A stretch of DNA of 64,000 nucleotides from positions 107,694,001-107,758,000 of the forward strand of contig OX597821.1 in NCBI GenBank assembly GCA_951406725.2. The letters are read 5' to 3'. This DNA comes from Octopus vulgaris (lineage: Eukaryota). A model generated the notes under the pieces. The model was not told where the DNA came from. It worked only from the letters and a program-made list of their open reading frames with translations, and made no database searches. The first letter of the stretch is position 1; every line of letters starts with the position of its first letter. Positions 25,331 to 28,355 of the stretch are shown in pieces. The position numbers and the translations under genes were made by a program.

Positions 25331-27427
25331 CTAAATTATCTCATTATAAGAGAAAAAAATTTTTTTAATATTCTTCAAAAATTTTTCTAATATTCTTCAG
25401 ACATATTGACGCAAATATATATTTTTTAACATTTAAGCTTTCTGTAGTTTTTTCACTTTTTACTATTTTCTATATATTCAACCACGTGCTTTCACAAACC
25501 AACTTTCTTATCTATCTATCTATCTATCTATCTATCTATCTATCTATCTATCTATCTATCTATCTATCTATCTATCTATCTATCTATCTATCTATGTATA
25601 TATATATATATATATATATATATATATATATTTATGCATATGCAAGCACACATCCGCATATATGTATGTACACAGCCACAGTTTCACACACAGGCATGTA
25701 TAGATAAATTTCGCTGTGTGTGTGTATGTTCTTGCGTGTATGTCTGCATACTGAATACTCGCTCACACACACACACACACACACACACACACACACACAC
25801 ACACACACATACACAATCTTCACACATTAAAAAACCAAGCACAACTATGTGCATAAATTTCGGTTTGTTACTAAACTGACGCAAAGAATTCCGTCTTCTC
25901 TCTTCATATTCCTTTCTATCAAAACCTCTACGCTGGATGAAATTATATTGGTAGCCGAGACGGCCAAGGATTATTAACTTTAATCCTACTGCAGTTCTAC
26001 TTTAAATCCATGTATTAACGTAATCGCCGGGTCAGGCAGTGTCGTTGTAAGCAATCGCTCAGAATGATTCGTTGAATGGACGCTGTTCCAGGGAAGAATG
26101 GTTTAATGGGTTTAGTAGTATGAGACTTCGATGCTTACGGCACAGAGTTGTGGTTTACAAGAGAAATGGCTGTTGTTGTTGTTGTTGTTGTCGTTGTTGT
26201 TGTTGTCCTCGTTGTTGCTATTTTTTCCCGATCACCAGGTGAGCCTCAATCATGTGATTCAGTATCAAGACCATTGAAACTTCGGCCATCATTTTTCGTT
26301 TTCTGTCTGTCTCTGATTCTCTCTCTCTCTCTCTCTCTCTCTCTCTCTCTCTCTCTCTCTCTCTCTCTCTCTCTCTCACTCTCTCTCTCTCTACAAAACG
26401 AGACGGTTAAAAGACATTTCATGTAAAGATATTTTTTAATGGAATTTATAAATTTTGAGTTTTAATTCATCTGAAGAAAATGATATTTTTCATGATGTAA
26501 TCGGTGTATTCTTAACAAAAAAATACGTCTGAAACAACTGTAGGGAGACTCAGCCCATTTGTGTTCTTTATTTCTTCAGCTATCTGTCTGTCACTTTCTC
26601 CCTCCTCTCTCTCTCTCTCTCTCCATACATATATGTGTATGTGTGTCTGTTTATATATATAAGTTTATATGTCTATATAAAGATGTATATACATATGCAT
26701 ATAGTTACATATATATATATATATATATATATATATATATATATATATATATATATATATATATATTGTGTGTGTGTGTGTATGTATGTGTGTGTGTGTG
26801 TGCGTGTGTGTGTATATTCATACATATATATAGATATATAATTTATAGATTTATACACAGACACACAAACACACACACACACACGTACACACACACACAC
26901 ACATATATATATATATATAGATAGATTTATACATATAGTTTATAGATTAGAGCATTCTTTCTGTCTACACCTCAATGTAAAATTCTTCCCTGGAGACAGA
27001 GGTTCGTGTTATCCGTTGATAGAATTAGGTTACAATCATTATTTTGGACCCAGAAACACCCGTTGGACTCGTAAAACTCCTACTCAATCCCCTTAATTCA
27101 TGATATCATTTCCGTGAATAAGCTGGACTTATTTTTATATGTATACATATGTATATTTTTTGTACTAAATGTATTTAATTTTATATCGCCTTGCTTAACA
27201 TGCTTGTTCTTAGATTTACTCATATATATAGAATTTTTCTCTTGCCCTTATTTTATAAGTTATATATATATATATATATATATATATATATATATATAAC
27301 TTATAAAATAAGGGCAAGAGAAAAATTCTAATCCCAAATATGCCGAAAAAAAGACAAAATTGTCAATAACCATTATAATTTATGCGTCTCGAAATATGCC
27401 GATAGAAATTTCTAAAAAATTCCGTTA

Positions 27428-27488
27428 TAACCGTATTGGTCCCAATTTCGGGGTTAATTCATAAGAATGTTCCCCTCGTCAGCGATTG
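27428..27488 (-). ncRNA. Type I hammerhead ribozyme, canonical core
   Basis: caatcg-CTGACGA-gggg..cccc-GAAA-ttgggaccaa-TA-cggtta. Confidence 0.9.
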
Positions 27489-28164
27489 ATACGTAAGACA
27501 TAAATGGAATACTTACTCATACCCACGGAAAAAGCAAGCACTAAGTCCCGAGCAGACCTAAGTACCCCAAATATATCCAAAATAGAAAATTTTCAGCACA
27601 TCTCGAGACACGTGTGATTCGATCTAGAAACTTTCATAGAGTGAGAGAATCTGGAAGTGAACACTATTAAATTTATAACCAATGTAGGATAAGATTTTTT
27701 TCGAAAGAAAATTTTTTTATCAATGGCCAGCATATCAAAAAATACCTTTAAAGGTTAAATTTATACATAACTTATAAAATAAGGGCAAGAGAAAAATTCT
27801 AATGCCAAATATGCCGAAAAAATGACAAAATTGTCAATAACCATTAACATTTATGCGTCTCGAAACATGCCGATAAAAATTTCTAAAAAATTCCGTTCTT
27901 TAGAAGGTATTTTTTTGATATGCTGGCCATTGATAAAAATTTTTTCTTTCGAAAAAAATCTTATCCTATATTAGTTATAAATCTAATAGTGTTCACTTCC
28001 AGATTCTCTCACTCTATGAAAGTTTCTAGATCGAATCACACGTGTCTCGAGATGTGCTGAAGATTTTCTATTTTGGATATATTTGGGGTACTTAGGTCTG
28101 CTCGGGACTTAGTGCTTGCTTTTTCCGTGGGTATGAGTAAGTATTCCATTTATGTCTTACGCTT

Positions 28165-28225
28165 TAATCGCTGACGAGGGGAAAATTCTTATGAATTAAC
28201 CCCGAAATTGGGACCAATACGGTTA
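28165..28225 (+). ncRNA. Type I hammerhead ribozyme, canonical core
   Basis: taatcg-CTGACGA-gggg-aa-aattc-ttat-gaatt-aa-cccc-GAAA-ttgg-ga-ccaa-TA-cggtta. All three stems pair; predicted cut after 28219. Confidence 0.92.
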
Positions 28226-28355
28226 TAACGGAATTTTTTAGAAATTTCTATCGGCATATTTCGAGACGCATAAATTATAATGGTTATTGACAATTTTGTC
28301 TTTTTTTCGGCATATTTGGGATTAGAATTTTTCTCTTGCCCTTATTTTATAAGTT

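Follow-up and report, generated by a model that had tools for sequence, protein, structure and literature searches.

Animal non-LTR retrozymes have been described as repeats a few hundred bases long, low in GC and without coding capacity, that carry a type I hammerhead motif, and they have been proposed to be non-autonomous derivatives of Penelope-like elements (PLEs) (PMC7229834; bioRxiv 10.64898/2026.07.22.740005). The units measure 150-450 bp in PMC7229834, where animal retrozymes are reported to yield circles, and 51-972 bp in bioRxiv 10.64898/2026.07.22.740005, where retrozymes are tied to pLTRs and cleavage was found in only one of nine tested. EN+ PLEs of the Neptune and Naiad type are described as combining a partial tandem unit with an inverted 5'-truncated copy and, often, a one-ended tail of 30-40 bp that is presented only as "optional" (PMC8557442, PMC3846280); the way in which such tandems and inversions arise in PLEs is called undefined in PMC8557442. 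The published account of Poseidon PAc, an autonomous element of Anolis, describes a tail delimited by two internal start sites of reverse transcription, target strands that are both cut and extended, a predicted dimer and insertion without cleavage; the start site used in vitro was no different between strands, and pairing within single insertions is not counted in the parts of that account considered here (PMC11167929).

Here we describe a family of 471-nt units in Octopus vulgaris that belongs to a known class, the non-autonomous PLE-type retrozymes. The sequence-only reading that drew attention to it had applied the retrozyme label, which is borne out, the unit being non-coding, provided with a conserved type I hammerhead motif, found in tandem laps and distinct from the ordinary pLTR of a coding PLE. 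Its GC content is about 30% (from base counts), and its length exceeds the range given in PMC7229834 and lies within that of bioRxiv 10.64898/2026.07.22.740005. Unlike the animal retrozymes of these accounts, the present family is dispersed in insertions of 0.1-2.5 units, often inverted, instead of long arrays, none of which was seen, and has no pLTR relative among the elements compared, its cleavage and circles being putative. With the EN+ PLEs it shares the partial tandem, the inverted 5'-truncated copy and the often one-ended tail, and with Naiads the (TA)n target (PMC8557442), whereas its tail spans about 95 nt, it has no ORF, and the presence of one start site of each kind in a pair is here a counted rule (71/73). 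Unlike those of Poseidon PAc (PMC11167929), its start sites have TA-like bases in common with the target. What is new is this counted one-of-each rule with an unusually long tail, together with mixed genomic evidence on a circular template; the main texts of the open literature yielded nothing on the 471-nt family or on a counted pairing of the two sites.

The window analysed is the 64,000-nt stretch of contig OX597821.1 (GCA_951406725.2) from position 107,694,001 to 107,758,000, and coordinates without a locus name refer to it. Unit numbering (U1-471) follows the reverse complement of 27298-27768, where a full unit lies on the minus strand with its 3' end, at 27298, on start site A. It is preceded on that strand by a 129-nt partial unit without the hammerhead core (U343-471, 27769..27897), beyond which an inverted arm (U16-471, 27898..28355, plus strand) likewise ends at site A, an A/A arrangement that belongs to a rare class. 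The head-to-head junction (27897..27898) sets U343 against inverted U16 with zero shared bases. At the left arm 3' end stands the target microsatellite, (TA)18 (27262..27297), and at the right arm 3' end a further (TA)n run (28356..28537). Across the (TA)18, a 33-nt exact copy of the unit 3' end (U439-471, 27229..27261, plus strand), which the sequence-only reading had overlooked, faces the main element tail-to-tail; L056 and L074 show a similar short inverted 3' copy, tail-to-tail across a short TA run. The type I hammerhead motif occupies 27427..27488 (minus strand) in the left unit and 28165..28226 (plus strand) in the right arm, with predicted cuts at 27434/27433 and 28219/28220, after U335 in both cases, and site B of the family (~U92-101) falls at 27976..27985 (plus strand), present and unused as an end in this copy. 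The earlier coordinates for the unit, the partial and the inverted arm are correct, the unit numbering confirms that the partial starts 7 nt 3' of the predicted cut, and the stated absence of an ORF agrees with a search of the window element in which, translated TA repeats aside, no stop-to-stop frame exceeded 63 aa.

The inverted arm and the full unit are 97.5% identical, with 10 differing sites in U56-300 and none in U301-471, and across U343-471 they match exactly. Between the partial and the full unit next to it, 6 of 129 positions differ; the partial carries the common alleles at U374 and U436, whereas the full unit and the right arm share the rare ones. The insertion had been called young, which holds relatively (2.2% divergence between arms vs 7.0% between elements) and not beyond relative terms.

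The 2.8-Gb assembly (227 contigs) was searched with the unit, giving 3177 first-look candidates, and one unit 27-mer had 503 exact matches; the family is high-copy and sits in (TA)n. After exclusion of matches shorter than 24 nt or below 32 bits, 201 fetched loci were parsed into 162 distinct elements. Half of these (81/162) come from loci around the first 100 listed of the 503 27-mer matches and constitute the least biased set, which still favours copies with that 27-mer, the samples overall being skewed toward query-like copies. Another 24 loci with two ribozyme motifs, two of which repeat earlier loci, were parsed apart. The 162 elements gave 269 arms, 225 of which were retained once the 44 without a classifiable 3' end had been dropped; 39 of the 225 are longer than one unit. 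Head-to-head inversion characterizes 92 of the 162 elements, and the position of the internal junction differs from copy to copy. The 92 junctions comprise 34 with an overlap of at least 3 bases, 33 that are approximately blunt and 25 with extra bases, a spectrum that would be expected if two cDNA ends were joined by end-joining. In four runs guessed to be RNA, contigs cover the unit, such contigs being uninformative on strand, ends and circles. In three further runs, under three organism labels, family depth is far above flank depth, and among the pieces listed none spanned the window junction or gave an empty site.

The 3' ends of the 269 arms fall at site A (U471) in 116 cases, at site B, which corresponds to ~U92-101 of the next lap and lies about 95 nt from A, in 109, and elsewhere in 44. 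A TA-rich flank follows 100/116 A ends and 74/109 B ends. Of the 92 head-to-head pairs, 62 could be classified and 30 could not; the former include 60 AB, 2 AA and no BB pairs (p=4e-16 against independence). The same pattern was found in 35/35 pairs of the least biased set and, read by eye, in 11/11 classifiable pairs of the two-ribozyme loci, so that one of each site is used in 71 of all 73 classifiable inverted pairs of the family. The window copy is one of the two AA exceptions; since its arms differ at 10 sites in U56-300 and at none in U301-471, later conversion or tail loss is possible, an explanation that is post hoc. Opposite arms share rare alleles at a rate of 17% vs 1.4% between elements, a sharing that could also stem from gene conversion after insertion. 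We infer a single event in which two primers, with a site assigned to each, drew on one RNA or source. In LINE-1 twin priming, two primers from one target give rise to a 5' inversion; here, unlike that case, the second primer would act at a fixed site, the arms usually overlap, and paired B arms stop exactly at site A in 6/66 cases vs 0/34 of unpaired ones, a difference that is suggestive only. Four of six long unpaired A arms (L104, L173, L192 and L196) stop at site B of their own lap, and such stops may arise because TA bases provide microhomology to the target or because the start site acts as a roadblock.

The hammerhead core is strongly conserved, with 19 of 1529 calls departing from the commonest letter compared with 2322 of 56762 elsewhere in the unit, and it is intact in 97 of 124 copies. 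Position N7 of the hammerhead is free (C in 50, A in 56, G in 28), and among the 124 copies the compensated stem I pair 282:340 appears as TA in 96 and as AT in 19. Core conservation, free N7 and the stem I switch are the pattern that selection on a working hammerhead would predict. The "three paired stems" of the sequence-only reading hold only loosely: in folding predictions stem III, which closes on a 2-nt loop, fails to form by itself (0 kcal/mol) and pairs between two copies (-12.9). The monomer ribozyme folds no better than shuffled sequences (z -1.0 and -1.3), and the ribozyme is predicted to cut only as a dimer of two tandem copies; PLE ribozymes show the same dimer dependence and low in vitro activity in the part of PMC4209133 considered. 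The two ribozymes of the window locus are inverted, so that it lacks consecutive ribozyme-bearing units, which occur genome-wide in 24 exact two-motif arms. Among these two-ribozyme arms, 18/24 belong to the subfamily L242-L263, in which stem III is one base shorter and stem I altered. An Rfam search, at the gathering threshold and at E<=10, returned no hammerhead and only hairpin look-alikes over the TA palindrome. The circular fold (z -4.4 against 40 shuffles) indicates structure, not circularity. A predicted long helix pairs U158-176 with U367-385 (28042-28060 with 28251-28269 within 28042..28269, plus strand), with 1301/1399 cells paired across copies; such predicted long helices are conserved across copies, yet the changes are mostly one-sided, for which reason the support from these helices is weak. 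A335G was considered as a mark of RNA editing and dropped, its 9 carriers being scattered and A>G on the sense strand being no more frequent than T>C (8.8 vs 8.0 per 1000).

The sequence-only reading had explained the window junction by a reverse transcriptase that ran off a ribozyme-cleaved 5' end, the inversion forming at that point. Apart from the distance of only 7 nt between junction and cut, it could be said for this mechanism that 0 arms end in U330-340 and 11 in U341-350, a contrast that is not significant, and that the word at U337-341 recurs at the would-be continuation of the inverted arm, where, speculatively, a later 5-nt loss could have shifted the end. Across the 162 elements, however, breakpoints in other copies proved unrelated to the cut, the outcome that the sequence-only reading had itself named as refuting: 5' ends of the 225 arms fall in U336-345 in 5 cases against 6.1 expected and in U336-350 in 11 against 9.2 (p=0.31), and the least biased set has 3 near the cut against 3.0 expected. 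The arms ending within 15 nt of the cut (11/225, ~5%) equal the background rate, and by our own arithmetic any excess concerns at most ~6% of arms; the actual hotspot of 5' breakpoints is U372-395, around a short palindrome. Because there is no enrichment at the cut and 138/143 arms read through it, a ribozyme-made end is unlikely, and an anole PLE inserted in vitro without needing cleavage, as the part of PMC11167929 considered reports. The mechanism is already largely refuted for the family and we regard it as very improbable here, the junction being likely an ordinary one that lies 7 nt from the cut by chance. Whether the template was a circle or a linear RNA is a separate question, on which we are about evenly divided. 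At 24 columns, counting indels, the two laps of an arm vary in concert, and across subfamilies no difference is fixed between laps; the laps share 15 rare alleles vs 111 unshared (20 vs 3084 between loci), and the own lap is the nearest relative in 13 of 24 two-ribozyme arms. Such concerted laps across the family fit a monomer read more than once, through a circle or a template jump, and a ligated circle junction would equal the genomic sequence. A linear read-through RNA of ~1.8 units, starting at ~U180 of the upstream unit and with laps kept alike by jumps or conversion, is a serious competitor to which we give somewhat less than an even chance. It is favoured by the early stop of upstream laps (1/24 passes U175 against 11 expected; 23/24 two-ribozyme arms stop within U178-306, and three of these within U178-183), by their stop rate, 2.4 times that of the first lap (p=0.005), by the lack of long arrays, and by the 0/53 rare alleles shared by opposite arms on different laps. 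The window partial, which differs from its neighbours, counts against the circle because it lacks their A374 and G436, and so does L241, with G at the cut base in both laps. Against the linear RNA stand the concerted laps themselves, with no fixed lap-specific difference, the extension of L250 and L021 beyond the supposed start, and the consideration that displacing first-lap cDNA on a circle would presumably raise the stop rate as well. Divergence slightly greater on the other lap than on the same one (5.1% vs 4.0%) also points away from a circle, though not significantly (p=0.13, and p=0.28 in a second comparison).

Two further explanations concern the nature of the element. Inverted arms measured in the window as 482 nt at 98%, together with mirror-like junctions in 18/92 cases, could suggest a MITE-like DNA element or a foldback palindrome with long terminal inverted repeats; this is refuted by the variable junctions and the existence of solo arms (70/162 elements without an inverted arm), the ends being besides usually unequal (AB), in disagreement with fixed equal terminal inverted repeats, and an RNA motif being conserved, and we consider it extremely improbable. 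Alternatively, the copies might be truncated versions of the ordinary pLTR that belongs to a coding PLE, given that the unit has the architecture of PLE ends and that L045 (positions 907-1748 of the reverse complement) contains, joined to the unit via a short inverted piece, part of a GIY-YIG sequence from a further PLE family. This joint could have arisen when the template switched to a PLE mRNA, possibly naming the partner enzyme, or when an old copy received an insertion; in the remaining 19 of 20 loci, the family of the fragment carries a different pLTR of its own. Matches to PLE proteins are confined to 9 of the 225 locus records of the family and share no position, and arms run on into another unit, not into an ORF. 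Compared with the pLTRs of 30 GIY-YIG loci, 8 long PLE loci and 20 loci of the further family, it gave no match. The pLTR explanation is refuted for these families and improbable in general, some other PLE family with such a pLTR being possible.

The unit lacks an RT plus GIY-YIG ORF and is not an autonomous PLE. The genome holds an autonomous Neptune-type PLE of 781 aa, with RT, GIY-YIG and, by eye, a CxxC linker; like the unit, it runs into (TA)n from either of two sites, here separated by 38 nt. Inverted pairs of this element are AB in 8/8 cases (7 scored, L265/L266 by eye), and its unpaired ends are mostly A (44 A and 5 B in a count that takes in three rows from pairs). An autonomous Neptune-type PLE family of young age is represented by L142:430-5672; it has numerous open frames of 781 aa, its 456-nt pLTRs are 99% identical, and a hammerhead-like motif with U3-A8 replacing C3-G8 lies about 90 nt before the end. 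Its 3' region bears repeated CCAAT/CRE-like boxes. At L143:5547, the TA run that follows the 3' end of an autonomous PLE harbours a copy of the retrozyme, the target being shared. The window itself contains a Neptune-type PLE (23324-25472) that is broken and shares 54-58% identity with the 781-aa protein, with an ORF remnant at 23726-25125 and an inverted copy of its own 3' end at the left; both arms seem to reach one end motif, which could be another A/B exception. Elsewhere in the window, a 5S rRNA match (4655-4773, plus strand, 80 bits) immediately followed by a high-copy repeat (~4790-5090) may be read as either a 5S pseudogene or a 5S-headed SINE-like chimera.

Taking together what is observed, namely the copy structure, the (TA)n at the ends, the ~95 nt between the two end sites, the pairing of one site with the other, 5' junctions that scatter, laps that vary in concert and a conserved core, we consider it probable that this is a high-copy non-coding hammerhead repeat, mobilised in trans by a PLE and double-primed at two sites in (TA)n. 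An enzyme with PLE reverse transcriptase and GIY-YIG activities, suggested by the shared ends and target, would likely nick both strands of the (TA)n target; two cDNAs would be primed, one at each fixed internal site of the RNA, and would run toward each other to join head to head. Both arms would derive from the same RNA or source, and the template was likely one unit copied in more than one pass. A more specific version, in which one enzyme dimer on one RNA, with subunits at A and B and one strand each, underlies every two-armed PLE insertion, and in which the RNA here is a ribozyme-made 471-nt circle, is tentative and on balance doubtful.

The near-absolute rule holds both for a non-coding family and for an autonomous PLE of the same genome, and through it the "optional tail" becomes a constraint that can be tested on the enzyme: within one event, each target strand would be expected to take a different start site. 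A short family with hundreds of datable copies also constitutes a good substrate for testing whether retrozymes move via circles. If the dimer-on-circle version were true, the genome would record rolling, double-primed reverse transcription of a circular RNA, and pLTR regeneration, the one-ended tail and 5' inversions would share a single mechanism.
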